This document shows positions 621-62,544 of a stretch of 64,000 nucleotides of DNA, in pieces (within the stretch, counting starts at the first letter, position 1; every line of letters begins with the position of its first letter). This stretch comes from Callorhinchus milii (lineage: Eukaryota). The DNA is taken from assembly GCF_018977255.1 (NCBI RefSeq), contig NW_024704742.1:20648001-20712000 (forward strand), given 5' to 3'. The notes below the pieces were generated by a model, which saw nothing but the letters and a program-made list of their open reading frames with translations, ran no database searches and had not been told where the DNA came from. The position numbers and the translations under genes are program-made.

Positions 621-3195
621 TAAGTAAAATGATTAATGTAACCAATAATCTGGAAGTATACTATAAATATCATATCTTTAGAAATCCTCTAACCAAACCA
701 ATCCCTGAAGCCACCATTTTTCAAATCAGGTTTTCTTCAATCTTAATTCATAAAATCTTATTTTATTGGATTAATGCATTAGCAAATCTATCCCTTCAAA
801 GCCATAGACCACAGAACATTAAACTACCATTACATAAATCATTATTTAATGTAATGATTCAAATGTAAGGAATATTTATTATTATTGAAATCAAATCTCT
901 GTCTCTGAATTATAGCTCTTTTCAAAATGTTATAACTGTATTTCTTAAATTATTTATTTCACCTTTTTAATATTGCATTCTGTCCTCCCACCCCGTCCCC
1001 CACGGGTGCACTATTCATGGGGTGAAAGGTGAGACATTTCATAACAGATTTGCTCTGATTGAAGCTGATATGAAATGTTACACTAGCCCATTCATTCCAA
1101 AAGATTGACAGTGGCACTGTACACTTTCTGCAGGAGGGGTTGGGATACACACCTGGCTCAATGCATCAAGCTTCCTCTTCAATGCATTTGATGTTTATAC
1201 AATCACAGACGTATTTACTCTGAATAATAATGTTAGAATATTAGAAATAGGATCTTGTTTGGATCTGTTATGCAGCACCTTTCATGTCTGGAGTTTATCT
1301 CAAAATGCTTCACAGGATTACCTGTAAAGTGTAGTGACTGCATTTTGTAGGCAAATGAAGAATATGGCAGCCAATTTGCAAGCAGCAATATCCCGCAAAT
1401 GACCAATTTTATTTGGGAGATTGTTGGTCAAGGCACTAGAAGAAACTCCCTTCTCTTTTGACCTGTTAAATAAGTATGTCCTTTATGCATACATTTGGGT
1501 CATATTTGATATATATTTGGGTCATTGTGCCATAGAGTGAAATGTGCCCAGTTTCTTCACACAAGGTTTTGATCTATGCAGTACTTTGAGGGAAGGGAAG
1601 AAGAATTTACAACAGACTTGTCCTCAGAGAGGGAAAGCCTACTCCAGGACATTCGGAAGACCATCTGGAAACAGGTCATCCATTTTCCCTCTTGGGAAGG
1701 AAAAATGGAGGAAAATATGTAAAGTAACACAAGAGTAAGCACAAAAATTGTACATTATTATGTGTTAGAGTGAGGAATAAATTAATTACATAATTTGCAT
1801 AAAAGATTTTGTAATTGGAGACTTATATGATAAAGGTTTTTATAGACTTTGTTTCCGCAATGCAGAAATTTGATTTGATATATCAAGGCTATGCAGCGTG
1901 CTGGATTCAAAACTTTAATAACGAGTGTTGTGGTGCTTTAGTGGATTCAGTAATAGAGAGATAAGATAGAGATTTTGACTCCGTAGAGGATGCTACTAGT
2001 CTCAGTCAATATCATCTGAGGAGATGCCAAACTGAAATTAGAGGCAGGAATATCATTGACAGATTTATAGGCAAAACATGAATACAATTTGCATTTATAT
2101 AGTGTTCATCACATTGGGCTGATGTCTCAAAGTGCTTGATACTGCTGGCTGGTCACTTGAGCTGGGAATGAGAGTCGAAAGGGTGGAGAGGAGAAAGATG
2201 AAAGAAAGCGCAGTAAAGCGGTGTGTCTTGAAACTGGCCTTGATTGAATGGAGAGAGGGAACAGTTCCAATGTACTCCGGGATGGAATGACTTGTACATG
2301 TGTGATGTATAATGATCTAAATTGGGATGATTTACATCAATGTGGCAAAATCTGAATTGGGCGATGTTTCTAATTCATCGCATTCTGCAGAGCTCTTGCA
2401 GATGTTTCTTTTGTGTAAATGTGGTGTTCCGTGAAACTTTACTGTCCAAGACATTCCTTCTTGGCCGGACTTGTCAGGCATCCATTCTATATAACTCTAC
2501 AAAACCACCAACAACAGCTTACGTTTATACAACACATGCACGTACAAAATCCATCTTTAAGTGCTATGCAGAATGAGATTAATTAGAAATGAAGTGAATG
2601 GAGGCAAACACCATAACTCGTTTGCACAAATAATGTCCTAGAGACAGGCAACTGAATAGAAATGTAGGCTTGAATTTGGATGAGAAGGAAATATAAAGTT
2701 AGGTTAACAGTGCGTTTACCTTTGCAGTGAATAAATAACAGTGGGAGCAGTGCAGGGCTCCTTTCAGTGCACCTGAATCACAGCATAAACACACACTCAT
2801 CCAAAGTTCTCGTGTACCCCAGAACTTGAACTCTGCAAACGATCAGGTCTCATTGGCTGTACATTCAGAAAGAACATTATTTGATATAATTTCTCACCTT
2901 AAGTGATTTTTATCCCCCTGAAATACAAGGCTCTTGCAACATGAACCACTGTTATGGAACTGATCAGTTGAAAAGGTCTTTATTGTGAATTAACTGATTT
3001 TTTTTAACACTCAGCACCAGTGATTAACTGAGCAAAGGAAATATAGACATAGACTTGTTTTTGTATGTTACAGTTTAAGATTTTAGAAGATGTGGAATGG
3101 CGAGGAATGCTGCATTTACTTAATAAAATACAGGAAATATCTGATTTAGAAATCCAGACTCATCTCTTGGAAATAGAATTTCCACAACCTGATCT

Positions 3196-3490
3196 GAACA
3201 GCAACAACTTGCATTTATATAACATGCCTCACACAGTATAGCGTCCCAGAGCGCTTGATAGTGGCGGAACTGGGGGGAGGGGGAGGTGACCTTAGGCAAG
3301 GTCAAAGAGGATGGTCTTGAGGCACGATCTGAAGGTAAGGAAGTAGAGAGCAAGGTGGAGGGATAGCAGAAGAATGGTGGAACGGAGGACACAAGGGACA
3401 AGCAGGAAGCTGGAGCCAGTCGAAAGGAGGCAGCAGGTAGTGGGTTTGGGAGTAAGCAGTTCAGAGAGGTAGGGAGGTGTCAGTGCTTGA
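3196..3490 (-). mobile_element. Degenerate L2 LINE 3' fragment
   Basis: (CAA)n tail then cttgcatttatataac; downstream sequence matches the antisense L2 ORF2 C-terminal region. Confidence 0.75.
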
Positions 3491-4387
3491 AGTCAAATGA
3501 ATAATTTACATTTATTAAAAAAACTGCAAAATTGCAGACAGCTAAACAATGATTAAAAACACAAACATTTTGCAATAAAAAGTCAGAATAATGGAACCAG
3601 GGAATAATTACAAGGTAGCAATGTAATCTCAGGGTCTTGAGAATGCTATAAACTACAAGAGTGGTTTACCATGACCACCTGAACACAGAGATTAGATTAT
3701 AGCCTTGCAATAATTTCCTGGTATCCTTTCTTATTTATAATATGTAGAGTTTTAATTTTACATGGACTTTTTAATATTGTTTCTCATCAGCCTGGATGAA
3801 GCTTTTACAAGTGCTCCATCTCCTTGACGTGTGGTGATGCTCACACAAGAGGATTATTGATGGCAACATCATTATTGCAAGAAATAATCTGCAGTTAATT
3901 GCTGGGAAAATTCTGCATTCAAATCCAGTATAAAAGCATGAAAGCAACAAAATTAAAGCAGGCAGGGGAGAGGAGGCATCTGAACGAGAACAAAGAAACC
4001 TCTTCACTAACACCAGCACAAGTATTGAAATAACATATTCCACCCAAACAAGTGTGGGAAGAACCGTGAAGAGATTTTAAATAGGGGAAATAGGACCCAG
4101 GTGAAGCATTAATTAGAAAGAGGCCTGGATTTGCTGCTGATGCTCCCGTCAATAAAATTAATTGGTTAATTAGTACATTTTATTTTTAGAACTACTGGCG
4201 TGCAGTTTCCCCTTAAGCCTTTTGACTGCTCAATAGCCTTTGCAGCTTTCAAACTCCGCAAATTTTTTGTGACTGATTGTTTGCAGTAATGGTCTGTAAA
4301 TCCACATAACCTGAATAATATAAAGTGAAGATTACAGAAACATATGGAACATAAAAAACTACTAATCTCTTCCGTTCAGTTATATAT

Positions 4388-5703: not shown

Positions 5704-6149
5704 TGTTTTTTTGATTTAAGATGGTGCAAAATTCATAAATTTAATCCTACTTTGGAAGCTGGTTCTCTGTTGTTTTTAATGAAGTGAATGACCAGTTTCA
5801 TCTGAGGGAATTATTGGCCAGCACACTGGAAGTGACTTCATTCTCTTTTCGAATAGTGCCACAGGATCTTTAACGTCCACCTGAGCAGGCAGATAAGTCT
5901 TCGGCTTAATGTCTGATTCAATGACGGCCCCTGAGTTTGATTCTATAATTTAATTCAAACTTTATTTGCTGTAAAATCATTTTACAATTGGAAAGATAGG
6001 CAAATCAAATCAACAATTTTATTTTTTTCCTTTTTTAATATTTAAAATGTAGATTTGCTCATCTTTTGATGTTCTTGGCTATGCAGTGTTCTTTGATTGC
6101 AACGGCCGGCCAAAGATCTTCTCCTGAAGCCTTTGCTGATATCACTCGC

Positions 6150-6455
6150 AAACAGCAGGAAGCTTGCCAGGCAATGCTTTCAATGGGGAGCTATGAGGTT
6201 TTAACTGGTTGGACTCAGCAATGCCCTAATGCATACTCTGGGGTTTCCAAGGCTTGGCTCTTGCCAGCTTGCATCTAATACTCTCTGGAATTAAGTAAGC
6301 AGGATGCGTCCCTCCAGGGAAAGAGTGTGTTTTCCATTACATACACAGGAAATTCCCTCTGTTGGTGGGATGTATGGAATTAAGACTTTGGTTGGATACT
6401 CTTCAGGATGACAATGGGATTCACATGTGTTACACATCTGGTTGACCCCAAAAAA
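6150..6455 (+). mobile_element. Unclassified A-tailed repeat family, copy 1 (3' part)
   Basis: Shares ggaattaagtaagcaggat and aagcttgccag blocks with the 32.4, 39.4, 48.6 and 62.2 kb copies; ends gttgaccccaaaaaa. Confidence 0.8.
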
Positions 6456-6828
6456 TGCAAGTTGTTGTTTAAAGTTCTGCTTTGTAGGGCATTGCTATAA
6501 TTTACAGTTATCTAGTTCAGTTATGCTGTTGTCTCAGAAAATGACAGACAAAGCTGCATTATGTTGCCGACAACTCTATGACAGCTTTGAGCTGTCTTCA
6601 TGCTGAAATCAGCGGGAGTCACACTCGGATCAGTGGCTAGTTAATGGACTGGCTCGATCACAATTTTCAATGAAGTGATAATTATCACATCACGCTTCGC
6701 AATTGTCACCACCATCTTTCCAAACCATCCTCGCAATGGGAATGGGAATTTCTCTCCCTTTCCAAACAAGGAAGTGATTAACAATGTCAAGATTCACACT
6801 TGTTTAATGAAGTAAATAAAATAATTAC

Positions 6829-29817: not shown

Positions 29818-30455
29818 GGGAGTTTGATGCAGCAAGCAATGCATTCTGCATTCTTATGAATAATTCTGAGTTGATGCTCGAAAACTGATAAGGCAATGAA
29901 AGCTAAATTTACATACTTTAGTGGTCATGTTACAGTTGAACAAATAGGAAAGAAAGCAATCTAAAAATATCAGCCTTCTTTGGTTTAGAAACTGTGAATA
30001 ACTGATTCTGATATGTCTTCTATGAATAATTGAAAACATTTAAGATACAATTTTTTGCTTTTAGTTTCTCTGCTAAATTTCTGATCACCTGAACGCCTAT
30101 AACATCAAGATATCTTGAGGTATCTCAAAGCATTTCACAAGAAATTGTGGTTTACTAAATTAACTATGTATTTAATAATCCTTGCATTTGATATTTTCGT
30201 ATTTCTTATCTGCCTTATTAGTGGACAAACATGACAGCCATTTTAAACACTGCAGGGTTCCACAAAGAGCCATGGAATGAATATTCCAGGAGAAACTTGC
30301 TTCTCTTTCCAAATAATAAAACCATAGAAATTGACAGTAAAGAAGACAGCCATTCACCCATTGTGTCTGTGCTGGGTCTTTCAAGGAACAACCCATTCAG
30401 TTCCATTTACCTGGCTTTATATCCAAATCCCTGCAATTTTTTTCCTCCTGTAGCC

Positions 30456-30853
30456 GAGTCCTGTAGCTTAATGGTTACTCACCTCACCTCGCAAGTGAGA
30501 AACCTGGGTTTGAATCCCAGCAGGACCAAATGTTTGGCAATGTTTCCTTACTCCACACACCTCTGTTTACCTAGTAGTAAATAGGAACCCGGTTGTTAGT
30601 CGATTGGCGGATCGCTTTTCAGCGGTAATAATTCCTTAAAAAAATAATAATAATAAATTGGTCACTGAATCCATGACTGTTTGTGGGACACTGCTGTGCA
30701 CAATTGACTGCTGCGTTTCGCCCACAAAATATACAGTAATTCATTTTACAGTATATTCTGTGAAGTGCTTTGAGACGTCTCAAAGAGGTGATAAGGTACT
30801 ATATCAAATGCAAGGATTATTATTATTATTAGTATTAATATTATTATTATTAT
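30456..30853 (+). mobile_element. tRNA-derived SINE (long variant)
   Basis: Head, ctctgtttacctagtagtaaataggaacccgg segment, Deu-like body, (ATT)n. Confidence 0.92.
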
Positions 30854-30984
30854 TCTATCTAGTCCGCTCTTGAAAGCTAATATAGATTTTGCCTCAACCA
30901 CTAAACCTGGCAAGGCATTCTACATCCTAACAATTCTCTGCATAAAGAAAAAATATTCAGAACTCCCCTACCCTCACCTTTTTG

Positions 30985-31290
30985 CTATTAATGGTGGAGC
31001 AGAGGGTGCGAGGGACAAGCAGGAGGCCTCTGCCAGTCGAGTGGAGGTGGCAAGTAGTAGATTGGGGAGTGAGGGGGTAGGAGAGGTAGGGAGGTGCCAG
31101 GGAGTGAAGGGATTTGAACATGAATGTGAATATCTTGAAGTCAACCCATTTGGTGACAATCAGACTCAGGCAATGTGGCGGAGGTGGAGGAAGGCCGTCC
31201 TGGTCAAAGACCAGATGTGGTGGAGGAAGGACAGCTGGTGGTCGAACTAGATTGCTGACTGGTTCAGTGAGTCTCAAGGAGAACCCAGGG
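30985..31290 (-). mobile_element. Degenerate L2 ORF2 fragments
   Basis: Antisense DFKIFTFMFKSLHSLAPPYLS. Confidence 0.8.
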
Positions 31291-32363
31291 AGGTTGAGGA
31301 GTTCAGATCACAGGAGTGAAGACATTGACTGGAGCCAAGGAGTACAGCTTCCATTTTACCTAGAAGGTTTAATCTAATCTGAAGAAACTGGTGTGGTGCA
31401 CAACAGGTAGAGGAAAATCTACATTGGATTTTCTTTGTGTGTGATCAAGAGTAATGTTTGTGGGCTCGCTTGTTAACTGGCCTTTAGTCAGTTTCTCATA
31501 TTCTCCACCATCTCAGTGCATGAGTCAGAGTCTAGCCATTTGTGTTTAGTGTTTGGTGTCAGCAGCATTGCACAGTGTTTACTGAATCAGCTGTAATAGA
31601 AATGTTACTGTGAATGTAGTACATTCTGTAATTTTTTATAAGTTGCCAGATGGCTCAGCGTGAGGTAATTGCCACCAGGGAAATGGCTCAGAAGCCGTAA
31701 TGAAATTTGTTAGATGCTGTAAACAATAGCGCTAACTTTGCCTTAGATAGTTCTCCCCTCATTGTTTGCTCAAGGCTCTCAAATTCAAATCAAGGATCAT
31801 TCGACAGGTGTTGTATCCAAGTAGAAAACACACAAAATATAGAAACAATGCACATGTTATCATTTAAAAAAATCAAACATAATTTCTTTCTTGCCCAGTT
31901 ACACCACAAGTTTGCATCAATTATGTTTGCGAAATAATATAAGGATTTGCAACAGAGATCTGAAAGTTTAATCTTCCTGGCTCTCTGTATAAGTAACTAT
32001 GAACGAGAATAATAACAATAATAATCCTTGTGTTTGGTGTGGCACCTTGCACCATGCCAGGATGACATCTCAAAGTTCACAGGATATATTGTAAAGTGTA
32101 GTGACTGTGTATGTGTAGACAAACATGGCATCCCATTTGCACACCACAATGCCCCACAACTCCCACCCAAGAAGCGAATGACCAACTTTATTTGGGAAAT
32201 TGTTGCCCAGCACTGCCTTCTCTTTAAGACCAAATAATAATTTGGTCATTCAATCCATGACTGTTTGTGGGACACTGCTGTCCGCAATTGGATTTACGGT
32301 ATATTCTGTGAAGAGCTTTGAGACATCTCAAAGAAATAATATTGCACTGTATCAAATGCAACG

Positions 32364-32397
<34 letters not shown>

Positions 32398-33230
32398 TCC
32401 ATGCAACTCACTTATATGTGAAAATCCCAGAGATAGTTTGTTGGCATGGAATGTGCACTCTCTTCCTGGGGGGACAGATCCTGCTTACTTAATTCCGGAA
32501 AGTATTACGCACAGGTTGGCAAGATCCAAGGTTTGGGGACACCAGAGTGTGCGATGGGGTACTGTTCGAGACTAACCAGCTAAAACCACAAAGCTTGCCA
32601 TTGACATTGCTGTCTGGCAAGCTTTCCCACTGCTTCGACCATCCTACCCATTAGGGCTTTGGGTTAACAGAAGCTGAGTGGGATGACTCCCTGCCCCCAG
32701 TGACAGGTCTGTCCTTTCAGGTCCTGCCAATGAGCCAGTGCTGTCATCAGTAGTGCCCTGGAATACTGCAGACCCGCCTGGCTCAGGAACCAGACTACAG
32801 AGGACTGGTTCAATTCTGACATTCTGTTGCCAGGCTTTCAGCTCCAAGGAGATCCTGTTTATCTCACCCCTGAAGAGGATAGTCACTAGTTTGTCGTTCG
32901 ACATCCGACAAGCTTGGGTTTGAGCCCCCACTCGGTGGACGGTAGGTACAAGACACGCCCTGTGAGCTTCCCGGTGGGCAACACAGCTCAGCAGGAAATG
33001 TGAGAAAGCATTGCATTGCCACCATTTTCCTGTCCGCAGCTCGGGCACATGACCCTTCCCATTGAGCGATGGAGGTGCGGAGTTTAAGCAGCAGCTGGTT
33101 GCCTCTCTGCAGGGCAATCGAGGTGGATTCCATCCAGGCACTGCATGTACAATCCCACTCATTCCCAAACCACACAAAACCTACTGAGTCACAGATTCCA
33201 TCCCAATGGTCCATTCCTTCCAAATGTCAA
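32398..33230 (-). mobile_element. Unclassified A-tailed repeat family, longest copy; possible CRE-like LINE 3' end
   Basis: Collinear with the 38.8-39.4, 48.4-48.9 and 61.9-62.4 kb copies; encodes SIALQRGN near its 5' end. Repeat status is firm, the CRE assignment is tentative. Confidence 0.75.
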
Positions 33231-34244
33231 TCAAGCAAAAGCTCTAATCTATTGTTCCATTCCCACATTACGTCTCAAACTGCCCTCCTTCAGTCAGTTG
33301 TGCAGAAAGTTAGTCTACTTCCCAGGACAAGATGATGAAGTAAATAGATAGTATGTTTTCAGCATGTGTGATGACACTGATTTCTGGATCTGTAATGTTG
33401 CAGCTGTTATACTGGAGCTCAACACTGCAGTGACAAACAATCTCTCTGGATGGATCTCAGCACATCCGAGTGTGATGTAGTTCCTGAGATGACTACACTG
33501 CTACATTTGTCTATGAAGTACACAGTCACTACACTTGATAGTATACATTATGAAGCACATTGAGACATCCTGCTGACACAAAACGCACTATTCCAAAGGC
33601 AATAATTATTATTTATGATTATGTTATAAGTTAAAGCAGTATATATAAGGCATATTATTGCATTCTGTAGCACTAAAAGTTACAAAACTAATTGATAACA
33701 CAGAACATATTTAATGAGTTAGGGACAGAACAGGAAAATATGGTGGAGAAGATCATCTTGTAGTGTACTGGATAATAGGGAACGTTTCTAGGTTCTTGGC
33801 CTGACAAATAACCAAAGACCCTAAAGGTTTCAAAGCAAACAGTTTGTAATCTCTCAGAAGAGTTGAAAACTGACTTGGGAATGAACAAACAAATTGTGCA
33901 GTAAACACGGCCTTGCGCATAGCAGTGAGTGGTAGCTGCTTTCTTCTATACTCAGGAGATGTTCTACAGGTGTTGCTTGTGCACAATTTCCGATGATATA
34001 TGATCAGGTTATAGCTGCTTTGCTGAGGTGAGACAAATTGCTTTGTCTATTTCCCTGGCACAAGGGAATGGCTTGGTAACAACAACTTGCATCCCTATAT
34101 GCAGGATAGTGTCTCAGAGTGACAGTGCTGCCAGTGTTTTGGACAACTTAAATACGGTGTTAAATATCCATCCAGCTTCTAATCCATGAAAAATGTATTT
34201 CGTGTCAATGTGTTTTTTTCTCTCACCACTACTGCCAGGGAATA

Positions 34245-34570
34245 ATAATATGCTTATTATTATTAATATTATATGCTTGTATTTGATATAAATCGCATCA
34301 CACTAAAATATTTCGAAAGTGCTTCACAGATGTTAAGTATAATGTCTATATTTGTGGCAAACACAGCCGCCAATTTTCATACACGAAAAGATCCCAAAGC
34401 ACCATGACTTGAATGACCGTTTTATTTTGGAGGATAGTTGGCTTGGACAGCAGGAGAAACTCCTTCTCCTTTCCAATAGTGTTACAGAATCTTTAACATC
34501 CACCAACAAGCAGCAGTGGCCTTGGTTTAAGGTCTCATCTGAAGGACAACACCTTTCACAATGTATCACT
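34245..34570 (-). mobile_element. Degenerate Deu-type SINE
   Basis: aatctttaacatccacc...ggtttaaggtctcatctgaaggac block plus tail. Confidence 0.7.
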
Positions 34571-35024
34571 CATAGAATCATAGAATTATACAGCAGAGAA
34601 GGAGGCCAATCGGCCCATCGTGTTTGTGCTGGCTCTTTGAAAAGTGCTATCCAAATCAATCTCCCGCTCTCTCCCCATAGCCCTGAAAACTTGTCCTCCC
34701 CAAATAATTATCTAATTATTGCTCTACTTGTAATCAACAGAAGTTTCACCGTGAACTGTGAGTTAAAGTCTTGACAAAGAGCCTGAACCCACGAACATCT
34801 GCCTTAGAAATAACAAGTCAAGCTGATACTCACAAATCCCCATTGACAAAAATACAACAGGTCATTTATGGAGCTGTTTCAACTGGAGTCTATTACTGGA
34901 GTCTATTTTGCTGTATATCTCAATGGGTATCACTTAGAATTACCATCAACCCACAAGAATTCTGCTCCAGAAGTAGATTGTGAGTGAGTAGGGTTTCTGC
35001 AGAACAGTGTAACTTATACCTAGT

Positions 35025-35842
35025 AACAACAACAAAATGACATTTATAGAGCGCCTTTCACATCGGGCGACCGGACACACAGGGCTCAGGACCCGAGCAT
35101 GGGGTAGGGGTGGAGTAGGGGTGAGGGAAGGCAGAGAGGTGAGAAGGCAACTGAAGGCACGATTGAAGAGGAGGGTCTTGAGACCGGCCTTGAAGGAGGC
35201 GAGGGAGAAAGCGAGGCGAAGGGACTGCGGGATGGAGTTCTGGGATGGAGTGTGGGGTCATAGAGGCTGAAAGCCCGGCCTCTGATGGTAGTGCGGGTCG
35301 GGCGAGAGACATAGTGCAGGCCGGAGCCCGCTGAACGGAGGGAAGTAAGAGAGGACAAGGCCATGGATGGTCTTGAAAGTGAGGACAAGGATCTTGAATT
35401 CAATCCTCTGGGGGATGGGGAGCCAGTGCAGTTGGGCGAGGGTGGGAGTGATGGGGTCACGGAGCCTGGTGCGCGAGAGTACACGAGCTGCAGAGTTTTC
35501 GATGATCTGCAGCTTGTGAAGGGAAGCGTTGGGAAGGCCGATGAGGAGGGAGTTCCCGTAATCGAGCCTTGATGTGACGAATGCGTGGGTGAGGGTTTCG
35601 GCAGCCTGAGGGGTGAGGCAGTGGCACAGTTTTGCAATGTTGCGGAGGTGGTGGTATGCAGTGCCGGTCATGGCGCGGATGTGGGGGAAAAGGACATTTC
35701 AGGGTCAAACAAGATACCCAGGTTCCTGACTGGCTTAGTGAGGTTGAGTGTGCAGCCGTGGAGGCTGATGCTGCCAGCGCCTGAGATGCGGAGGTGCTGG
35801 CGTGCGCCAATCAGGAGGGCCTCAGTCTTGCTGACCATAAGC
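35025..35842 (-). mobile_element. L2 subfamily B, 5'-truncated
   Basis: HHLRNIAKL...[14 protein letters not shown]...[15 protein letters not shown] with frameshifts; (CAA)n tail. Confidence 0.95.
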
Positions 35843-36224
35843 AGTCCCCATTTTTATGTGACTCAGATTCTTTATTTAGGAATCTTGTTCAGAAATACCG
35901 CATATTGGACCCCATTAGATTACATTGTGTCAGGTGGTTTAATTTACCATCACTAGCGAAAAAACATGTGAATAACCTAAACATGCTATTCTAGTAAATG
36001 GGAAAAGTACATAATCACAAAAGAGCTTGAATAATAATATTCCTTGCATTTGATAAAGCATGTTATCACATCATCGAGAAGTCTTAAGAGCTTCAGAGGA
36101 TATACTGTAAAGTGGATCGACTGTGTATTTTGTGGGCAAAATGCTACGAGGAAAACTGCATAATGCTTAACATGTAACACAGAGTTATGACGGGTTTTAA
36201 AATCACTTCATTGTTAAGACAAGT

Positions 36225-36239
36225 GTGCCATCTGGAGGC
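36225..36239 (-). promoter_or_regulatory. Candidate CTCF site
   Basis: Reverse complement CCTCCAGATGGCAC, one mismatch to the core consensus. Confidence 0.4.
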
Positions 36240-37539
36240 AACAATGTGAGAGTTCTAAATGTTTTGTTTTGAAGATGACCGGGTGTAAAACTCAGCAATT
36301 CACCATGGGATTCCTCGGGTAAGGACTTCCAATTCAGAAATAAGGAAATATGATCATGGTGACCCACTGGAAACTTGTCTCCAGAAACAGACTGTGTCAG
36401 AACAGAATCCTGTAGAATTGTGTCTGGGACTCAGAGCTCTCACTAAAGAATCCGATAGAAAATCACTGAGTTTAAGCTCCTGTAAATGTGTGTAAAAATG
36501 CAACTGAAGTGACTGATAATCACTGATTATCATAAATATAAAATCTGAAGCCTTTAACTTCCATATATATGCTATATTTTAGGTAAAATAATTGTTTTAT
36601 ATTATTATTGATAGACAGTTCGCCTACAAGATGCACAGTCACTGGACTTCACAGCAAATGCTGTGAGGTGCTTTGAGATGTCTTGTTAACATGAAACCCA
36701 CTACATTAGTTGAAAGTATTATTATTCATTTATCTTATAGCAGAGTATTACATTATGATTAATTTGGAGTTCACAATTGTATAACTTCATCATAGAAAGT
36801 TACAAAAGTATTTATCAGTATTGTCGCAATTTTTCTCCATAAAACACACGCTTTACAGTATATCCTGTGAAACAATTTCAGATGTCCTGCTAAGGTGAAA
36901 GGCTCTCTACCAAATGTAAGGAGTATTATTATTTTTTGATAACAATGTCCCTTCACACTATTTCTAAAACTTGATGTAATACATCATAAAAATAATATGT
37001 TATTAAACAAATTTTACTCAGGGATTTTTTCCTGGTTAATCCCAGATTTTACAGACAACTCTCTCATCACCACAGGATGTCTGACTGTAACAGAAAAAGT
37101 ACGTTCACAATTATTAATTATTTACCTGGACTGGGAGAGCTCACTGTTATAACTGTCCTGTTAGAAGTGATCTGCACAAAAGAAATAACACAAACATCAG
37201 AAGCTCCTGTCCTCACATAAAAGTGTTATTTCAAAGAACTATCATAATTTGAGTTAGGAGAGAAATAACGTATGAACCTCAATGGTTATTAAAGACATTG
37301 AAATACCTCATCATTATTTAGAAGCCAAAATGTCACCTTTAGCTCCTTTCTATTCATTTTGTGCTGCTTTTAAATGTTTTTGCTTGATATATGAAATGGA
37401 AGTCATTCCCATGCTACGCCATAATATCTAAAAATGAAATAATAATGTGGATTTGTGATGTAATTAGTAATTTTTAGGTATTTCTTATCAGATTCCTTAA
37501 CTATCAAACTTCGAAAACTTTGAATGCGCTGACAGACGC

Positions 37540-37885
37540 ATAATAATAATCCTTACATTTGATGTCGCACCTTATCACGTCTCAAAGCATTTCACCAGAC
37601 TTACTGTAAAGTGTAGTGACTGCGTATTTTGTAGGCAAACATGGCAGTCAATTTCTGCATGGCAGTGTCCCATAGAGAGACATGAAGTGAATGACCCATT
37701 TTATTTTAGGGGATGATTGTCCAGGATCCAGGATCCTGGGAGAAACTCCCTTCTAATCCCATGTCAATGGATCTTTCCAGCTGAACAGACAGAATGGACC
37801 TCAGTGTAACATCTCATCCAAAGAATGGCACCTCCAAACATGCAGCGCTCCCCCAGCACTGCATTGGAGCTTCATCCTATAATTT
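37540..37885 (-). mobile_element. Degenerate Deu-type SINE
   Basis: Tail, Deu body and aacatctcatccaaagaatggcacctcc...cagcactgcattggag. Confidence 0.75.
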
Positions 37886-38145
37886 GCTTGGACATCGCTG
37901 AGCAACTCATCATAGTGAAACTGATGCAAAGAATTGCACTTTGTGTAAATCTCCACTAGAGTGCAGCTGAGGCTTCTGAATGAGGTGCATTTGTAGGGAA
38001 CACATACGTAGTTGCCACAACTTTTACTGACGACAGTGAATATGCTCTCTCTTTGGACCATCCACCTGCCCATCAAGACACCCAGCTCTCCTGTTGGACT
38101 CTGTCAGTAGGATGGGCAAATGAAGGCACAGATGTCCTGCCTAAA

Positions 38146-38290
38146 AACATAAGAACATAAGAATTAGGAGCAGGAGTAGGCCATTCAGCCCCTTGAGCCT
38201 GTCCCGCCATTCGATAAGGTCATGGCTGATCTTCTGACCTAACTCTAATTACCTGCCCTATCCCCATATCCCCTAATCCCTCTATTTTTT
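38146..38290 (-). mobile_element. CR1 3' end
   Basis: (AAGAACAT)n tail; close match to 56869-57015. Confidence 0.9.
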
Positions 38291-39438
38291 AACCTTCTTC
38301 TTCAGCCGTGCTTACGGCCACCTCGCCCACCCTCGGAGTCAGGCTCCACCACTGTTAAGCGCTCTGAGACGCCATCCTGAGTGGAGGGTGCTACGTAAGT
38401 CCAAGTTGTTGTTGTTGTACATATGCAATATTAGTTGAAGCATAGGGACAAAGCAGCTGTTGGCCAGGAGATGGTGCTGTTCACCACAAAAAGCTCAGAT
38501 GTTGTGGGCAAGTCATCACCAAAGATCATTCAATAAGTTCCTCAAGATGCCCACCAAAGAATGGTAATACACATTCCAGTGTATGAGAGAAGTATGACCA
38601 TAACACCAAAGTCAATGAAACTTCCTGTTAAGGTGGACTTCAAAGACCTTGTGATAATATTGAAAAACATTTTTCCAATTAAAAAATTGTAGTCACGTGA
38701 CTGTAGGACTTTGTGGTGCTCAATTGACTGCCATGTTTGCCTACAACTACACAGACACTACACTTGAGAGCAATTTAAAACATTTCAACCTTATAGGTGC
38801 CAGATCAAATCAAAAGTGTGTCTGAGTTGTGCGCAGGAAGATGGTGGCAATGCTCTCATGTGTTTCATGCTGAGCTGTGCTGTCCACCAGGAAACTCAAA
38901 TGGAGTTCCTAATACCTGCCATCCACCTGGTGAGGACTCAAACCCACACTTGTCAGATGTCAAATGACCAAATCCCTGACTGTTCAGTGCCTTGGGACAT
39001 CCTCCCGACATGAAAGGCGCTATACAAATGTAATTTTGTACTGTATTGGCTATACTCTTTGGGAGGATGTAAACAGGGTTTCCTTCAAGCTGATCAGGCT
39101 CCCAGGTGACATGTTTGGCAACAGATGTCAGAATCAACTAGTCAGTAGTCTGGTTCCTGAGCCATACGGACATGCGGTCCTCCGGGGCACTGCTGATAAC
39201 AGCACAGCCAGCTTGGCTCATCGGTAGCACTTGGTAGGGCAAACCAGTCACTGGGGCAACAATTGTTCCCATCCAGCTCCTATTAACCTGCAAGCCAAAA
39301 CCTTGATGAGTAGGGTGGTCCTAGCTGGACAAGCAGCGACTAAGCTTTCAATGCTAAGATATCCCAACACACACTCTTGTGTCCCCAAGCCTTGGCTCTT
39401 GCTAACCTGTGCCCAATACTTTCCGGAATTCAGGTAAG

Positions 39439-39684
39439 CAACAACAACAACAACAAGATTCCATTTATAGAGCGCCTTTCACGTCGGGAGGACGTCCCAA
39501 GGCGCTGTACAGTTGGGTCAGGACCCGAGCAGGGGTGAAATGGTCAGGGTGAGGGGAGGGAAGGGAGGGAGCGAAGAGGGGGTAGAGAGTCGAGAGGGGA
39601 GCTGAAGGCACAGTCAAAGAGAAAGGTCTTGAGACCGGCCTTGAAGGAGGAAAGGGAGGAGGCAAGGTGAAGGCACTGGGGGAT
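39439..39684 (-). mobile_element. L2 subfamily A 3' end
   Basis: Reverse-complement match to about 46555-46849. Confidence 0.93.
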
Positions 39685-39710
39685 AGAAGCAGAATGAGCA
39701 CTCTGTGCTT

Positions 39711-40288
39711 ATCGGCCTTCCGAACTCTTCCATCCTCATCGGCCTTCCGAACTCTTCCCTTCATAAGCTGCAGATCATCCAAAACTCTGCAGCTCGTGTA
39801 CTCTCACGCACCAGTCTCCGCGACCCCATCACCCCCACCCTCGCCCGACTCCACTGGCTCCCCATCCCCCAGAGGATCGAGTTCAAGATCATCGTCCTAA
39901 CCTTTAAGGCCATCCATGGCCTTGACCCTCCTACCTCTCTGACCTGCTGACTCCCTACCAACCTGCCCGCTCCCTCCGTACATCAGGCTCTGGCATGCTC
40001 CATGTCTCCCGCTCGACCCGCCCTACCATTCCAGCCTCTCTACCCCCACACTCTGGAACTCCATCCCTTGGTCTCTTCCCCTCGCTTCCTCCCTTGCCTC
40101 CTTCAAGGCCGGTCTCAAGACCTTTCTCTTCGACTGTGCCTTTGGTCTTCCTCCCACCTCTCTGCCTTTCCTCACCCCTACACCACCCCTCCCCCATGCT
40201 CGGGCCCCGACATCTGACTGTTCAGCGCTTTGGGACATCCTCCCAACGTGAAAAGCGCTCTATAAATGTAATGTTGTTGTTGTTGTTG
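39711..40288 (+). mobile_element. L2 subfamily B, 5'-truncated
   Basis: [18 protein letters not shown]...[14 protein letters not shown]; 3' stem-loop and (TTG)n. Confidence 0.95.
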
Positions 40289-40954
40289 AGCCTACCAGGG
40301 ACAGAATGCCCATTTGAATCCAATAAATATTAATTTGAATTTCCATGTCTAGGTGGGATGCATGGAATTCTCAGTTTCGATTGGATATTGTTAAGCATGG
40401 AGATGGATTTCTGCAATCAGCTGACCCCCACCCCAACAATTAAATGATTTGTTTGAGTTAAGTATGCTTAGTTTTATTAGCTAGAGTCAAGCTGACCTGC
40501 AGAATTACAAAATCTTGATCATAAAATGTTCTTTTGATTACATGAAGGTTGCTTATGCCTGTTAGTAGGTCTCAAAATGACTTGCACAACTGCTATCTTG
40601 ATTATAAATGTTGTTTTAGTTAAATTCAGCTGAATTGCAGTACTTCTATCCAAGCATAATGGGTGTCACAGGATAACTCGTATAACACAAGATAAAATAG
40701 TATGAGGAAATATCGTTATGCTGTGTATTGTATTATGAAGAGTTAAATTGGCTAAGAAAGAAGTGAATTTGTTATTGTAGTTGGAATTTGTTGTGTCGTG
40801 ATAGTCCTGTGGTTTACTCAGAGTCAGCCCAAGGCCAACATGATTAGAATATTCAGATGGGTGAAACCGTGCTGACGTACCCTCAGTAGCCTAATGTTAC
40901 AGGACCAAGGAAAACAGAAACAGGAAGAGGTCATTCAGCATATTCATCAAGGAT

Positions 40955-41515
40955 ATGTCACCTCTCGGCTGAACTATTCAAATGCCCTCCTCGCTGGTCT
41001 CCCCTCCACTATCATTCATAAAATCCAGGACATCCAGAACTCTGCCGTCCACATTCTTACCCGTACTAAACTCCACTCCCCGATTACCCCAGTCCTTGCC
41101 AGACTGCACGGGCTGCCTGTCCCAGAGAGGATCGACTTCAAGATCCTCACTCTTGTCTTTAATTCCCTCCACTCCTCTGCACCCTCTCTGACCTCTCTCC
41201 TCACTACAGTGCCCGTTGCCTTCGCTCCACTGGGTCTGGCATCCTCCTTGTCCCCCGAATCCTCCGCTCCACCATTGGTGGCCGAGTCTTCAGCCACTAT
41301 GCCCCGAGGCTCTGGAACTCCCTTTCTCACTCTCTTCACCTCGCCCTCTCTCTTCCTATTTTCAGGTCTTGGCTAAAGACCTTTCTTTTCTACCGAACCT
41401 TTGGTCACCTTCTTCCCCCTCCCCCTGGCTCGGCCCCAACATCCATTATTGGGAAGCGCTCTGAGACGCCATCTTGCGTGGAGGGCACCATATAAATTCA
41501 AGTTGTTGTTATTGT
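40955..41515 (+). mobile_element. Older L2 3' fragment
   Basis: [16 protein letters not shown]...[12 protein letters not shown]; tail ataaattcaagttgttgtt. Confidence 0.9.
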
Positions 41516-42000
41516 TCTTGTATTCCACTAGTCATTAGATTTTGGTAGATCTTTTAATCTCAATACTCCACCCATTGTGCCATCCTTCTTAATATCTCTG
41601 TATGCTACTTATCTGTCTTTCACAAAGTCACAAGATTGGTTTGAATGAAGAAGGCATTTCGACCCATCTGATCTCATTCCTCAAGAACACTAACCATACC
41701 ATGAATTTGGTGTCCTGGCCTCAAACCTCTTCCTGGCAACCTGTTCCAGTCATTAATTACCCTCTGGGCAAATAAAATCTTCCTGGTAGCTGTTCTGAAA
41801 TTACCTTTTGCATCTCTAAACCTATGTCCTCTTATTCCCCTGTCCTGGTGTATCCTGGAGTATTGTCCTGGGTTCATTTTTACAATCTCATTTAAAATTT
41901 TATATACCTAGAATAGGTATTCAGCCCTTGGCGTTGATGCCATTGCATAAATGTAACTGAAAACTCCAGCAAACCGCTTCCTCGTTTAGATAAACGGCCA

Positions 42001-48013: not shown

Positions 48014-48436
48014 AGTGTGCAAATTGGCTGCCATGTTTGCCTACAAAGACAGTCTTTCTAAACAAAACTTTTAGAAAAGCAATTGAACCAATTTTTTAAA
48101 TATTGTACAAATCTCTGTCTGAGATTCAATCAGAAGAGGGCAAGAGCATTACATTTCAAGCTGAGTAATTCTGACATCTCTTTTCCAGAAACTTTAATCC
48201 CCTTCAATACATCAGGGAGTGCTGTGGTGCACAGAAGACGTTACCTCTGAAGAAATATTAAGATATTAAACACTGCAAATAGTTGCCTATTTTTCCTGCA
48301 GTATAAAATAACCATTTTAAAACTGCACTGAAAGAGTCAAAAGTCTCCTCAAATTTATTAATCTCCTCAAAAATAATTTGTAACTTTTGTTAAAAAAAAC
48401 TAATGATCATAAACAGCATTAACTTATTTTTCAAAC

Positions 48437-48930
48437 TTTTTTTTGTACAGCCGAGTGTCTGATACATTCTGAAACCCATCATCATGCCAGAATGGGAGTT
48501 GCATATACGTATGCCACCTACACGTGGAAATTCTTGTGTTGGAATGGAATACAACTTTCTCCCTGGAGGGATGCATACTGCTTATGTAATTCCAGAGAAT
48601 ATTAGGCACAGGTTGGCAAGAGTACGTGTTGGTGTACTGTTGCAGTTCAACCAGCTAAAACCGCATAGCTTGCATTGAAAGCACTGTGTGGCAAGCTCCT
48701 TGTTCAGCTGGGACTACCCTATCCATTAGGGGCTGTCCTTCCAAATCCTATTGACACACAAGGCTAGCTGATCATCAGTGGTGCCCTGAAGTACAACAGA
48801 TCGATTTGGCTCAGTAACCAGAATTCCAAGACCACCGCAGAGGGCTGGCTTGATTCCAACAAGTTAACAAGCGAGTCACCTTAGGGCCAGTCCATCTCCA
48901 AGGAAGTACCGCTTACTGCTCTGCCCTAAG
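48437..48930 (-). mobile_element. Unclassified A-tailed repeat family copy
   Basis: Same blocks as the 32.4 kb copy; reverse complement ends tcagacactcggctgtacaaaaaaaa. Confidence 0.8.
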
Positions 48931-50654
48931 GAGCATAATTAAGGACAGTGATTCTTGTATTGAAATATAAAATAGCATATTGTATTAAGAATATACACAT
49001 TATACTGATTTTAATGATAGACCAGATTGTTTAAAGACAGACTATTCATTAATTTGAATAGCTGCAAGTCAATGGATTATTGGCATGTTTACTTAAGTAT
49101 TGTGTTGCTTTCCATTTGAATCTGTTGCTTCCAGGTTAATTTAAACTTCTAAATGTCCCCTCCCCATGTTTCTTTGTCCCAGATCTCTTTTATTATTTTT
49201 CTTTCTGTCTTTTAACAGCATAATTTATTTAGTATCTCTCAATAATAAGAATAATAAGAATAATAATCTGTACAATTACTACAGCACGGTTCATGTCAGA
49301 AGATTCATCCCAAAGTGCTTCACAGGATATTCTGTAAAGTTCAGTGATTGTGTGTTTTGTGAACAAACTGTTACCAGCCTATCTTAAAAATAATTCTTCA
49401 TATCTCCAATCTCCATTTCCTTCAGTTCTCACTCCACTCTTCTGAATCTTGATTGATTTCTTTCAGAACACTCCTTATCCTTCTCTTCCTCCTGCAATTT
49501 GAATATTGCCACTTGCTCTGGTTTGCCTTGAGATCATATTCTGTCTTGTCATTCCTTTGCATTCCTTCCCAAGTCTAGCCTTGAACCTTGAATTCAAACA
49601 TTAAGCAATGCACACAATATGATAATCCTAGAGAAAATATATAGAGGTTTAATTTGTGGTATTCCTTAATGCAATTCCTTATGAGAAATCTTGTAAGAAA
49701 ATCTATGGACTCAGAGAAATTTGTTCCGGTCATTGATCTCGGACATCCATGAGATGCCAGCCATACTTCCCGTTTGCATAACACGGATTCCTTCTTAAGA
49801 AGTAGTACAGTACAGGACACTACAATACAATGATAGAGTGCCTTTCACGTCACATAGACATCCCAAAGCATGTGAGAATTCTGGCAGGAGTGAGGTGAGG
49901 CTGGGAGCTGAGCGAGATGAGAAGGAGAGATATGACTAAAAGCGTCAGAGAGGTACATTTTGATGCATACCTTTAAAAAGGGGAAGGAGGGAGCAATGTC
50001 AGACAGACCTTGGAATAGAGTTCCAAATTAGCCCCCTGTATAATTGATTAATTGCAACAATATGTCATTTTTAAAAAATATATATTTTTAAATGTTATTT
50101 TATATTCTTTTGTGTAAGGAACCAACTGTATTCAGTTGAATTAGAGACAGGTGTGTGAGCCCGGAGGACAGCAGAAGCTATGACTAATAACTCCTCACAG
50201 AGAATCATTGGGGTAAGCTTGTTCATTGTTTGTACAGTGACCTAAATAAATGAATTGGTGTGATTGTCGTGAAATTACAGAGGAAGTATAGGTTTGGATT
50301 TCACTGATCATTGTTACTGACAGTACTTGTTTTTGCAAATAGACAAAGCTGCCTTCCAATACCAATCCTGGCATTAGGTGGGATATCAACTGCAGCCTTT
50401 TTCTGTAATGGCAAAGTCTGTTGTCAAATACTCATCACTCTGACCCATTTACCCTTGAACTCAGCAAACAGCAGCATGTCTTGCATAGCCAGAATTTCAA
50501 AATAATTATAGGATGTATATGTAATGTGAAAAGTTAGTTAGGTGGAAGATATCCAGTGAGCTAAGAAATTGTTCAAGCAAATTAGTCTTCACGTTTGTCC
50601 TAATTCTGTCAAATATTGCTTACCCTCTGACAAAATGTCATTTACTAGGACTGA

Positions 50655-51609: not shown

Positions 51610-51772
51610 CCATATCCCTCCAAGGAGAGAGTGCAATTCCTACTCCAGACACAGGGAAATTTCCATGTGTAGATGGCATACATATGTGGAACACTCTCAG
51701 TCTGGTTTTGATATTGTTGAGCATGGCTGTGTTCTCATATGTGTCAGACACCTGGGTGAGCAAAATAAAAAT
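51610..51772 (+). mobile_element. Unclassified A-tailed repeat family, short 3' copy
   Basis: ccctccaaggagagagtg...atttccatgtgtag...gtgtcagacacctgggtgagcaaaataaaaa. Confidence 0.7.
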
Positions 51773-52329
51773 CATTTTTCAAATTGATCAGAGCACAGTT
51801 TTAATATTTTAAAAATCTATAAAACACCCTTGTTCAATTGTTCCTTCCACGTTCGCCTACTTTCTATTGGTAATGTTATTGAATTTTGGAACATTGATGT
51901 GCAAAAACACGATTTGTGTTCAGTGTAACTGCGAATGTATTATAAATATATAAAATGTAAAATAATTTAGCTCTTGCTATTGCTGCATAAAGTTCATGAT
52001 ATTTGTTTTTTTGACATATGAATCCTTTTGGTTCAATAATGCAGTCTATCAAGTTGCTGTTGAAGTTACAGTCCATGCCTAGGGCTGTTGTAGTCTATTA
52101 CTCATTTCTAGAATAAGTCAGAATACCAGTTGTGTTTTCAATTAGTTGATTCATTCTTACTGCTAGTTGTAGTTCAATAATTTGATCTGGCACTGTTAGG
52201 TTTTAGTGGCTGTTAATACAAATCCATTATTGATCTTGTGTTTTGCCCACAAAAACATAGTCACTACACTTCACAGTATATTCTGTGAAATGCTTTGAGA
52301 CATCTCGAAGATGTGATAAGGCACTATAT

Positions 52330-58210: not shown

Positions 58211-59139
58211 AATTATATATTATATATTATAAATTGCCCCCCCTACTGTAATATAACATACTAGGAGTTCTTAGCTGAACAAGCAGTGTAAAGTTTACAA
58301 TTGCACTGTTTTTGTTGGATTAATTCCTGTTGTACCCCAAAATGTACCTTGTGTACCCTAATCACTTGTCTTTCTTAAACTAGACCTATGTTCTCCTGGC
58401 ATAGGCAAGTAAGGAGGCCTAATTTAGACCTCCATTAGCATTGTTGAAGTATTAATACAGGCAGTGCAAATTGATTTGGGCTCTGCTCAAAATAGATTAC
58501 CCAGACATAAGTGTGCTACCCCAGTGATAAAGCCATTAGACAGATGGCATCTCATTCAGTCCAAATAAAGCAATCTCTACAATTAAATCATGTCTGAATG
58601 CCTTCCTTCACAAAAAAAGTCTGGATACATATCCAAATAGGTCAAGAGATCTGATAGACAAAGCTAATGTGGTATTAATACTACTAATGGCTCATGAAAT
58701 GTATTCAGAGTAACTGAGCAGTCGAGAGCAAGAAGGTCCCAGAGACACACATTTATCATGGTCATAACCTCAACATCATTGGCATTAAATTTATGACTTT
58801 CAGAAAATTTTTAAATGCAGTCTTAATTTGGAAGCTGGATTTCTCCTGTTCTTTTTAAAAATTGTGGAAAATTGGCCTCCAAATGATAACAAAATAAACC
58901 TTACATTTGATATAGTATCTTTCCACATCAGGAGAATGTCTAAAAGCACTTCACATGATATACTGTAAAGTGTAAAGACTGTGCAGTTGTGGGGGACCAC
59001 GACAGCCAATTTTGTGCACAACAATGCCTTGCAAACTGCCAGGAAATGAATGACTATTTGTTTTATTTGGGTGGACTGTAGGCAAGGAGACTAGGTAGAA
59101 ATTTCCTTCACTATTCAAATAGTGGCATTAGGACACTTT

Positions 59140-61500: not shown

Positions 61501-61864
61501 CATCTGTGTAGAAATGGGTAGAGGAAAAACAAACCTGGCGCATTCCTTTTCTACACAGTTTGTTGAACAACCCATTACTGTCCCATTTTGTTAGCAGCTT
61601 GAAATTTAGTGCTGTACACAGATGGAGATGCGCAGAAGCCCTTATTGGGACACCAGAAACCTTGGTTATTGCTCAGTTCAGACAAAGCTACGTGTCAAGC
61701 AACAGATCACTCAGAGACATGGTGTTGGACTCAATCTCATTCATACGTTATCAGGCCCAATTTAGCAGGTCTGCATTCAGTCAAGTAATGCAATCATTTC
61801 TGTACCACAAGGTACTGGCAGACATATTACTTTTTTATGGAGGTGGTACACTTGTCATTCATAC

Positions 61865-62403
61865 TATCATCCTTAGGTGGCAGGTAAGCAGGGCCTCCTT
61901 GGAGCTGAACAGGAAACAGAATGTCAGAATTGAATCAGCCCTCTGTGGTGGTCTCAATAGTCCGGTTCCTGAGCCAGGCAGATCCGTACTATTCCAGAGC
62001 ACTGCCGATGACAGCACAGCCAGCCTGGCTCATCGGCAGACCTAGAAGGCAGATCAGTCATCCCACTCAGCTCCTGTAAATATTGCAACCCAAAGCCCAA
62101 ATCGGCAGGGTGGTCCTAGCTGGACAAACAGTGGAAAGGCGTGTCAGACAGTGATATCAATGGCAAGCTATGTGATTTTACCTGGTTAGACTCCAGCAGT
62201 ACCCCATCCCACACTCTGATGTCACCTGTGCTTCGGGAATTAGGTAAGCAGGATGTGTTCCTTCAGGGAGAGAGTTCATATTCCATTCCAACAATCTATC
62301 TCTGAGATTTCCATGTGCAGAAATCTCAACTTGGATTGGATAATCTTAAGCATGGTAATGGGTTTCCGCTTGCGTCAGACACCCAGCTGATCAAACAAAA
62401 ACA
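61865..62403 (+). mobile_element. Unclassified A-tailed repeat family copy
   Basis: Collinear with the 32.4 kb copy; ends gcgtcagacacccagctgatcaaacaaaaaca. Confidence 0.8.
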
Positions 62404-62544
62404 TTCAGACTAGAAATAGAGAAGGTACTTGAGACCCCCAAAATCAACCCATTGTTCTCTCCTCAGCCTCTTGTGGCAATTGACATTAAACAACGAAAAC
62501 ATGTCCTTGACCTCATTGCTAAGTTCACTGAAGGGGAACAGAAG

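Follow-up and report, generated by a model that had tools for sequence, protein, structure and literature searches.

Six repeats in a Callorhinchus milii window very probably derive from one old LINE family of the AP-endonuclease type

Results

Copies of the repeat in the window

The window analyzed here is a stretch of 64,000 nt of Callorhinchus milii DNA (contig positions 20648001-20712000), and the genome searched for further copies was the 991.5-Mb assembly. The window carries dispersed copies of a repeat, one of which, a stretch of 833 nt at 32398-33230, had been singled out in the initial annotation and is referred to as the flagged copy. All six homologous copies that were claimed at that stage were recovered using self-BLAST of positions 32251-33350 together with two family HMMs built from genomic copies, with nhmmer E-values ranging from 2e-185 to 6e-7. 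The copies, the parts of the flagged copy and several weaker fragments are listed in Table 1, in which model positions refer to the long model (3' end near position 4260).

Table 1. Positions of the repeat copies in the window and of the parts of the flagged copy
Feature	Position	Strand	Remarks
Copy	6149..6464	+	model 3958-4257; common 3' end, A-rich run
Flagged copy	32397..33152 (nhmmer extent 33152-32391)	-	model 3387-4203 of ~4260; E 2e-185
3' UTR remnant of flagged copy	32397..32643	-	247 nt; terminal ~65 nt and A tail absent
Putative family stop codon TAG	32644..32646	-	majority frame open to ...SPNG*
Remnant of ORF C-terminus	32647..33152	-	three-frame translation; family majority frame
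Cys-His knuckle CxxC...H....C	32975..33047	-	in two frames here; end coordinate approximate
Peptide STSIALQRGNQLLLKL	33080..33127	-	helix-like stretch directly upstream of the Cys-His knuckle
Flanking DNA, MDHWDG inside	33153..33230	.	no genomic copy matches
Copy, 5' piece	38815..39441	+	model 3497-4113; cut off by insertion
Insertion in the 38815 copy	39442-40290		849 nt
3' piece of the 38815 copy	40291..40439	+	model 4121-4257; reaches common 3' end
Copy	48417..48938	-	model 3671-4258; common 3' end, A run
Short copy	51612..51782	+	model 4118-4260; common 3' end, A-rich run
Weak 3'-end fragments, absent from the initial annotation	54108-53989, 53944-53853	-	nhmmer E 1.8e-12, 1.1e-9
Further weak fragment	58265-58412	+	nhmmer
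Copy	61862..62410	+	model 3659-4283; common 3' end, A-rich run

The 5' ends of the six copies vary, with model starts at 3387, 3497, 3659, 3671, 3958 and 4118, and five of the six share a 3' end at model 4257-4283 that reads ...cagacac.c.gctgacc-like, both as had been described. All five copies with this common 3' end continue into a short, decayed A-rich run, and the copy at 61862..62410 has CATTCA at both of its junctions. The copy reported at 38815-40432 had been taken as the longest one, which holds for its span only, as its length is due to the 849-nt insertion.

The boundaries of the flagged copy had to be redrawn. It was placed from 33230 onwards, yet its real 5' boundary lies at 33152, and positions 33153-33230 have no match in any genomic copy. 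The hexapeptide MDHWDG (33213-33196), which had been read as lying upstream of the peptide, is for that reason flanking sequence and unrelated to the ORF. The copy is truncated at both its 5' and 3' end according to nhmmer with the long model, and BLAST against 29 genomic copies agrees. It is the only one of the six that falls short of the common 3' end: it lacks about 65 nt and the A tail, and at 32397 it abuts an (AAT)n run and another abundant repeat. Genomic copies run about 65 nt beyond this point, to ...GTCAGACACCCGGCTGACC and then an A run. The lost last ~65 nt were not found within 31000-32500.

Abundance and insertion footprints

The flagged 833 nt yielded at least 11982 first-look candidates in the genome, and the 40 that were scored all had E <= 1e-99. 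At least about 12000 first-look matches and the divergence of the copies bear out the initial view of an old and abundant lineage. Identity to the 3' consensus is 80-91% for the 29 best genomic copies (mean 87%) and 70-81% for the copies in the window, the flagged copy standing at 81%. Towards the 5' end of the element, the first-look candidates, which are lower bounds from queries of unequal length and not copy numbers, drop from 11982 (3' 833 nt) to 1681, 923, 183 and 48. This fall of more than 200-fold is the pattern that 5' truncation produces.

The 3' end of the model is reached by 43 genomic copies, 38 of which have an A run of 4 or more and sufficient flank for analysis. Without exception, these 38 copies show a ...GACC-like end followed by approximately 5-11 A. 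The insertions are dispersed, the flanks of the 38 copies being mutually unrelated. Target-site duplications (flank match score ≥ 8) were detected in 12 of the 38 copies, or in 11 of 37 when counted independently, with L040 and L044 treated as a duplicated locus. In the control, 1.35% of 1406 mismatched flank pairs reached this score (Mann-Whitney p 5.5e-5). The duplications measure 8-13 nt and mostly start 0-7 nt after the A run and end at the 5' junction. An earlier test based on longest common substrings and a short HMM had given no excess of duplications (5.8 vs 5.6), because its boundaries were wrong. The common 3' end, the variable 5' truncation and the target-site duplications agree with the A-tailed, target-primed retrotransposition that had been proposed from the window alone.

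Coding sequence of the flagged copy

Three-frame translation shows that roughly two thirds of the flagged stretch consists of decayed coding sequence. It would hold the last ~170 codons of an ORF, frameshifted, followed by 247 nt of UTR. The ORF remnant at 32647..33152 contains several frameshifts, in-frame stops and an internal deletion of about 28 nt near 32835. In natural copies, the C-terminal region of this ORF aligns to the matching part of full-length proteins that carry an AP endonuclease (APE) and a reverse transcriptase (RT).

The peptide that had drawn attention initially was rightly taken as coding: it lies in the true frame of the element, as given by the majority translation of 29 copies. 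The expectation that SIALQRGN would be kept in an open frame holds for the frame and fails for the residues, since the family majority reads ...LIGLQRGKQLLL..., with LIGLQRGKQ where the flagged copy has SIALQRGN. The majority translation of the 29 copies continues via ...LIGLQRGKQLLLKL... into a CxxC...H....C knuckle. The homologous stretch of another copy, L041, aligns to residues 1071-1164 of relative P0115 (E 1.5e-5), which span the pre-knuckle region and the knuckle. The flagged copy itself retains CPSCGQENGGN at 33047-33015 and SHFLLSC in the next frame. A knuckle is present in the last quarter of 132 of the 138 long relatives.

Past the knuckle, the ORF extends for about 130 codons to a stop, and after a variable G run the frame is open in several natural copies (e.g. 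L007 and L048). A profile of the C-terminal tail of the relatives matches seven of the 1297 six-frame pieces of the family (best E 5e-5), all seven on the sense strand and at the expected location. BLASTP of the post-knuckle tail against the relatives gave no match at E ≤ 0.1, so the tail step is based on the profile. The family stop most likely lies at 32646-32644, with SPNG at 32658-32647 in the window copy. Counted from this position, the 247 nt present and the ~65 nt lost would make a UTR of about 310 nt; the long 3' UTR of the initial annotation is mostly coding.

Reconstruction of the full element

Longer genomic copies were found stepwise towards the 5' end and translated. These copies lead to an RT, which supports the initial reading of the repeat as the 3' end of a LINE. 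The stretch L018:2820-3209:- matches Pfam RVT_1 with E 1.1e-9 and 38.7 bits (cut-off 29.6), and RT motifs 4-7, RQGCPLSP and FADD among them, align cleanly in 14 natural pieces without stops, drawn from ten copies. Further upstream of the RT, seven copies (L063, L067, L068, L069, L070, L071 and L072) carry a linker and, before it, an AP endonuclease. The endonuclease motifs of the WNV, LQE, VY.P, GDWN, IDH and SDHWPV types occur in canonical order in natural translations of L067, L068, L069, L070 and L072, namely ATWNVNSL and LTLQEM in L068, VYIPQK and LMGDWN in L072, and AIDH and SDHWPV in L072, L067 and L070. By BLASTP, the pieces align inside the Exo_endo_phos domain of relatives: the L068 piece to P0007 residues 134-189 (E 1.4e-8), L072 pieces to P0018 residues 245-292 (E 1.6e-7) and P0013 residues 352-414 (E 6.7e-7), and the L067 piece to P0001 residues 414-452 (E 2.7e-7), where E-values of the endonuclease pieces (1e-5 to 1.4e-8) refer to a small local database. 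Pfam searches with single endonuclease, linker and C-terminal pieces gave no significant match (best Exo_endo_phos_2, E 0.17). As single pieces stay below Pfam significance, the endonuclease is called from the motifs and the BLASTP alignments to relatives.

The pieces of the family are colinear with proteins that contain both APE and RT, in the order APE, linker, RT, post-RT region and C-terminal knuckle. One copy, L002, covers model 2146-4256 in a single alignment, and L018 also joins the RT and the tail. A shared 5' terminus was observed in that 8 of 45 non-self matches to L068:2900-3750 start at query 36-50 and none earlier. The true start of the element would accordingly lie near L068:2935-2949, some 650 nt before the endonuclease, with the leader of ~650 nt represented by one copy. 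The rough consensus comprises 3976 nt, and the full element would thus be about 3.9 kb long, with ~980 codons from APE to stop. From 5' to 3' it would read: a leader of ~650 nt, APE, linker, RT, the CxxC...H....C knuckle, a tail of ~130 codons, a UTR of ~310 nt (...CTGACC) and a short A tail. This layout was assembled from about 12 broken copies; no intact copy was seen, and coverage of the 5' half is 1-7 copies per column. The length and start codon of the ORF are thus provisional, and an ORF1 or an N-terminal domain may be present. The pieces are probably parts of a single ORF, and no ORF1 was seen in the poorly sampled 5' region. RNase H was not matched in 17 natural pieces scanned, nor in 12 checked relatives, and it occurs in 2 among 120 relatives listed.

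Relatives were collected with a profile of RT motifs 4-7, built from the 14 natural pieces and run against 1.84 billion representative proteins, whereas a word-based protein search with one decayed RT piece had found nothing. The profile gave 10600 matches at E ≤ 0.001, of which 9 had E ≤ 1e-30 (best 2.1e-37). Environmental sequences are found among the nearest relatives, together with elements from chytrids, microsporidia-like fungi, green and brown algae and Blastocystis. The named ones come from Batrachochytrium, Amphiamblys, Chlorella, Ectocarpus, Blastocystis and Smittium, along with one Taxus record. In all twelve long matches picked from the top 20, Exo_endo_phos precedes RVT_1 and further Pfam families are absent. 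The relatives P0001-P0020, from environmental and transcriptome assemblies, share the order of the family (APE, linker, RT, knuckle and a LLGG...RFL-type tail), with identities over RT motifs 4-7 of mostly 40-55% (range 33-57%). They are 1190-1400 aa long and differ in an N-terminal extension of 70-230 residues before the endonuclease. The NPGP signature of a 2A peptide was found in 1 of 231 relatives, at an internal position.

Discussion

The six repeats are, with high confidence, dead and 5'-truncated insertions of one old, abundant LINE family of the AP-endonuclease type. A SINE does not fit, as the 5' ends vary and run into an ORF and a fixed Pol III head is lacking; six tRNA-like matches lie in the window, all outside the copies, and an Rfam scan of 30000-42000 returned a tRNA-like match alone. 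A terminal hairpin GUCAG...CUGAC was tried as a recognition signal and rejected: five natural 3' ends fold no better than shuffled sequences (z -0.79 to +0.43), and the hairpin is present in one of the five minimum-energy folds.

The initial annotation had assigned the repeat to the CRE type, i.e. LINEs that lack an AP endonuclease and have a restriction-like nuclease after the RT. The founding members of CRE insert site-specifically in spliced-leader genes. Two observations go along with such an assignment. The family has a Cys-His knuckle after the RT, as CRE/SLACS and other LINEs with a restriction-like endonuclease do, and its RT profile scores 41 bits against solved R2 proteins and 28 bits, over 64 positions, against human L1 ORF2p. 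However, the group description in excerpts of PMC13708176 gives CRE-type elements no APE, a nuclease C-terminal to the RT and site-specific insertion, and the family departs from it in each respect. The same copies carry an AP endonuclease 5' of the RT, Exo_endo_phos is the sole nuclease family in the 12 full-length relatives that were checked, and the insertions are dispersed, their flanks being unrelated and target-site duplications present. The 5' extension proposed in the initial annotation did uncover an RT. A PD-(D/E)xK pattern was not found after the knuckle in the tail consensus of the relatives. The QRGN-type stretch, too, aligns to the pre-knuckle region of APE-type relatives. The CRE reading is refuted because the 5' extension leads to an APE-type LINE, an outcome that the initial annotation had itself named as speaking against it, and we leave it practically no chance. 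The accompanying premise that a LINE with a restriction-like endonuclease would be unexpected in a vertebrate was weaker than stated, as passages of PMC5753468 report R4 and R2 in vertebrates.

Within the APE-type LINEs, the clade can be narrowed down by resemblance only tentatively. Membership of Vingi is defined by RT phylogeny, and the likeness noted here is one of description. By its build, the family resembles Vingi, which serves as a lead. Vingi elements are compact and dispersed, with a single long ORF that has an N-terminal APE followed by RT and no RNase H; the family has an APE before its RT, dispersed insertions, no RNase H match in the pieces scanned and probably a single ORF. The family measures ~3.9 kb with ~980 codons from APE to stop, compared with 3128 nt (3.1 kb) for Vingi-2_Gav in the relevant section of PMC5786205 and a single Vingi ORF of 993 aa in that of PMC3708506. 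Vingi is characterized in excerpts of PMC13708176 as compact, with a single ORF and no RNase H, and as the sister of Ingi; passages of PMC5753468 place it in hedgehogs, reptiles and a human relic, X12_LINE. Examples named across the corresponding sections of PMC5786205, PMC3708506, PMC13708176 and PMC5753468 are Vingi-1_ACar, Vingi-1_EE and Vingi-2_Gav. Unlike this Vingi record, the relatives found here come from fungi, algae and protists or are unnamed, and have a longer N-terminus. Our literature search returned no relevant paper on Vingi in sharks. Ingi/L1Tc of trypanosomes, the sister of Vingi, likewise has a single ORF with an N-terminal APE and then RT according to parts of PMC3708506 and PMC13708176. 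It differs in having RNase H and an N-terminal 2A peptide, whereas the family lacks RNase H in the pieces scanned.

A place in an L1/Tx1 or RTE-related clade is possible. That the family belongs to the L1/Tx1 group rather than to a Vingi/Ingi-like or other clade seems unlikely to us. L1 elements nick the target with an APE, prime at the 3' end and leave an A tail, target-site duplications and heavily 5'-truncated copies, and they have a C-terminal Cys-His motif. The family leaves the same insertion footprints, with an A tail, 5' truncation and target-site duplications. Its RT has FADD and a motif 4 of the RQGCPLSP type, a CxxC...H....C motif lies towards the C-terminus, and some neighboring Atlas clusters have zf-RVT in 18-30% of their members. 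On the other hand, L1 has an ORF1, whereas none was seen in the family, in which the 5' region is poorly sampled, and the named relatives are fungi, algae and protists. The 28-bit score of human L1 ORF2p, the sole L1 reference, lies below that of R2 and weighs little either way. We consider it equally a long shot that the family is the branch found in vertebrates of a lineage of compact LINEs with a single ORF that spans eukaryotes and is largely undescribed, either outside the named vertebrate clades or basal to Vingi/Ingi. Such a lineage would have an N-terminal extension, APE, RT, a Cys-His knuckle and a conserved LLGG...RFL-type tail, and two hot spots of 5' ends could point to a structure within the element that gives rise to tail-only copies.

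These hot spots also bear on the origin of the short copies. An apparent fixed, SINE-like start at 32835, suggested by many matches beginning at query 396, is an artefact: the window copy has an internal deletion at this point, and in the matching copies the family sequence runs on into the flank. The 5' ends do still cluster more loosely, at model 3654-3699 and 4113-4130, which simple random truncation does not predict. The copies of ~600 nt and ~140 nt could stem from one or several non-autonomous derivatives that consist of the tail only, e.g. an internally deleted or SINE-like element, and that the LINE mobilises in trans. Seventeen of the 38 analyzed copies start within model 3654-3699, and among about 13 incidental or window copies, which are less biased, four start at 3657-3695 and four at 4113-4130. 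Short copies are 79-84% identical to the window copy and long ones 70-78%, although this identity sample is biased to the best-scoring matches. Non-autonomous derivatives are reported for Vingi, Ingi and RTE in the relevant passages of PMC5786205. Nevertheless, the 5' ends within the cluster differ nucleotide by nucleotide, as in pausing and not as from a fixed master, a tRNA-like head is present in none of the copies, and the short copies have no 5'-leader sequence joined to them. On balance, such derivatives appear improbable.

The likely mechanism of insertion is drawn by analogy from the established working of APE-type LINEs. The AP endonuclease would nick the target DNA, and the RT would prime at the nick and copy the element RNA from its 3' end. 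This copying would usually stop early and leave many tail-only copies with short target-site duplications.

The result is mainly of value for annotation, in that an abundant old repeat now counts as an ordinary APE-type LINE instead of one of the exotic CRE type. The observation made initially is essentially right and its exotic interpretation is wrong; the eight-residue motif in one decayed copy was real coding sequence that pointed to the wrong family. The 3' end of the family could be a SINE partner, a relationship for which tables of SINE-LINE pairs are part of PMC3747384. Judged by its build, the compact element found here, with APE and RT and without RNase H, may be a candidate for an old Vingi-like lineage.

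Regions flanking the endonuclease and reverse transcriptase

The 5' leader of the LINE family is covered by a single old copy at the genomic locus L068. Upstream of its endonuclease, this copy contains an open frame of 178 codons (L068:3071-3604, forward strand). This frame has no match in Pfam and none to the N-terminal regions of the full-length protein relatives that carry both an APE-type endonuclease and a reverse transcriptase; it could be due to chance, or represent an N-terminal domain or a remnant of ORF1. In these relatives, which were obtained by a profile search of the protein database, the endonuclease is preceded by an N-terminal region of 70-230 residues. They (P0001, P0005, P0007, P0025, P0115 and others) also share a conserved C-terminal tail of the LLGG ... 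RFLQ type beyond the Cys-His knuckle, and LLGG is located within the last fifth of the protein in 85 of the 138 long hits. No Pfam family was found for either the tail or the N-terminal region.

Clustering of 5' ends

The 5' ends of the LINE-family copies are concentrated in two narrow zones of the family model (a long nucleotide HMM), at positions 3654-3699 and 4113-4130. The first zone contains the 5' end of 17 of the 38 copies analysed. Of the roughly 13 copies in a less biased sample, four begin at model positions 3657-3695 and four at 4113-4130. Just downstream of the first zone, the sequence contains a G run along with an inverted repeat of 9 nt (CCTTGGAGC...GCTCCAAGG).

Other repeats adjoining or interrupting LINE-family copies

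An abundant SINE-like repeat adjoins the truncated 3' end of the LINE copy flagged in the initial annotation, and self-BLAST within the window returned matches to it at 20 or more other places. At six places in the window (4393, 8517, 19028, 30457, 52475 and 56239), ARAGORN detected a tRNA-Ala/Val-like head. The insertion that splits another LINE-family copy into two pieces consists of two arms, in inverted orientation, of an abundant repeat. Runs of (CAA)n and (TTG)n mark its boundaries, and it has 30 other matches within the window. The initial annotation regarded this insertion as L2.

Features in the window
Feature	Position	Remark
SINE-like repeat	32251-32396	
(ATT)n run	~32365-32397	Accompanies the SINE-like repeat 32251-32396
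Further copy of the SINE-like repeat	30457-30850	tRNA-like sequence at its start (Rfam tRNA, 38 bits)
LINE-family copies in the 5'-end zones	Starts 61862, 48927, 51613	
849-nt insertion	39442-40290	Interrupts the third LINE-family copy

Apparently duplicated and adjoining copies

Two pairs of genomic loci contain the same element copy with the same flanks, namely L040/L044 (G000:C4:47373593 and 47349413) and L052/L053 (G000:C4:7112357 and 7086439). The loci within each pair lie 24-26 kb apart, one pair being inverted and the other direct, and they look like local segmental duplications rather than independent insertions. On the reverse strand of L063, the 3' end of a second LINE-family copy is located directly 5' of the long copy spanning L018+L063, and thus copies of this family occur in tandem or nested.
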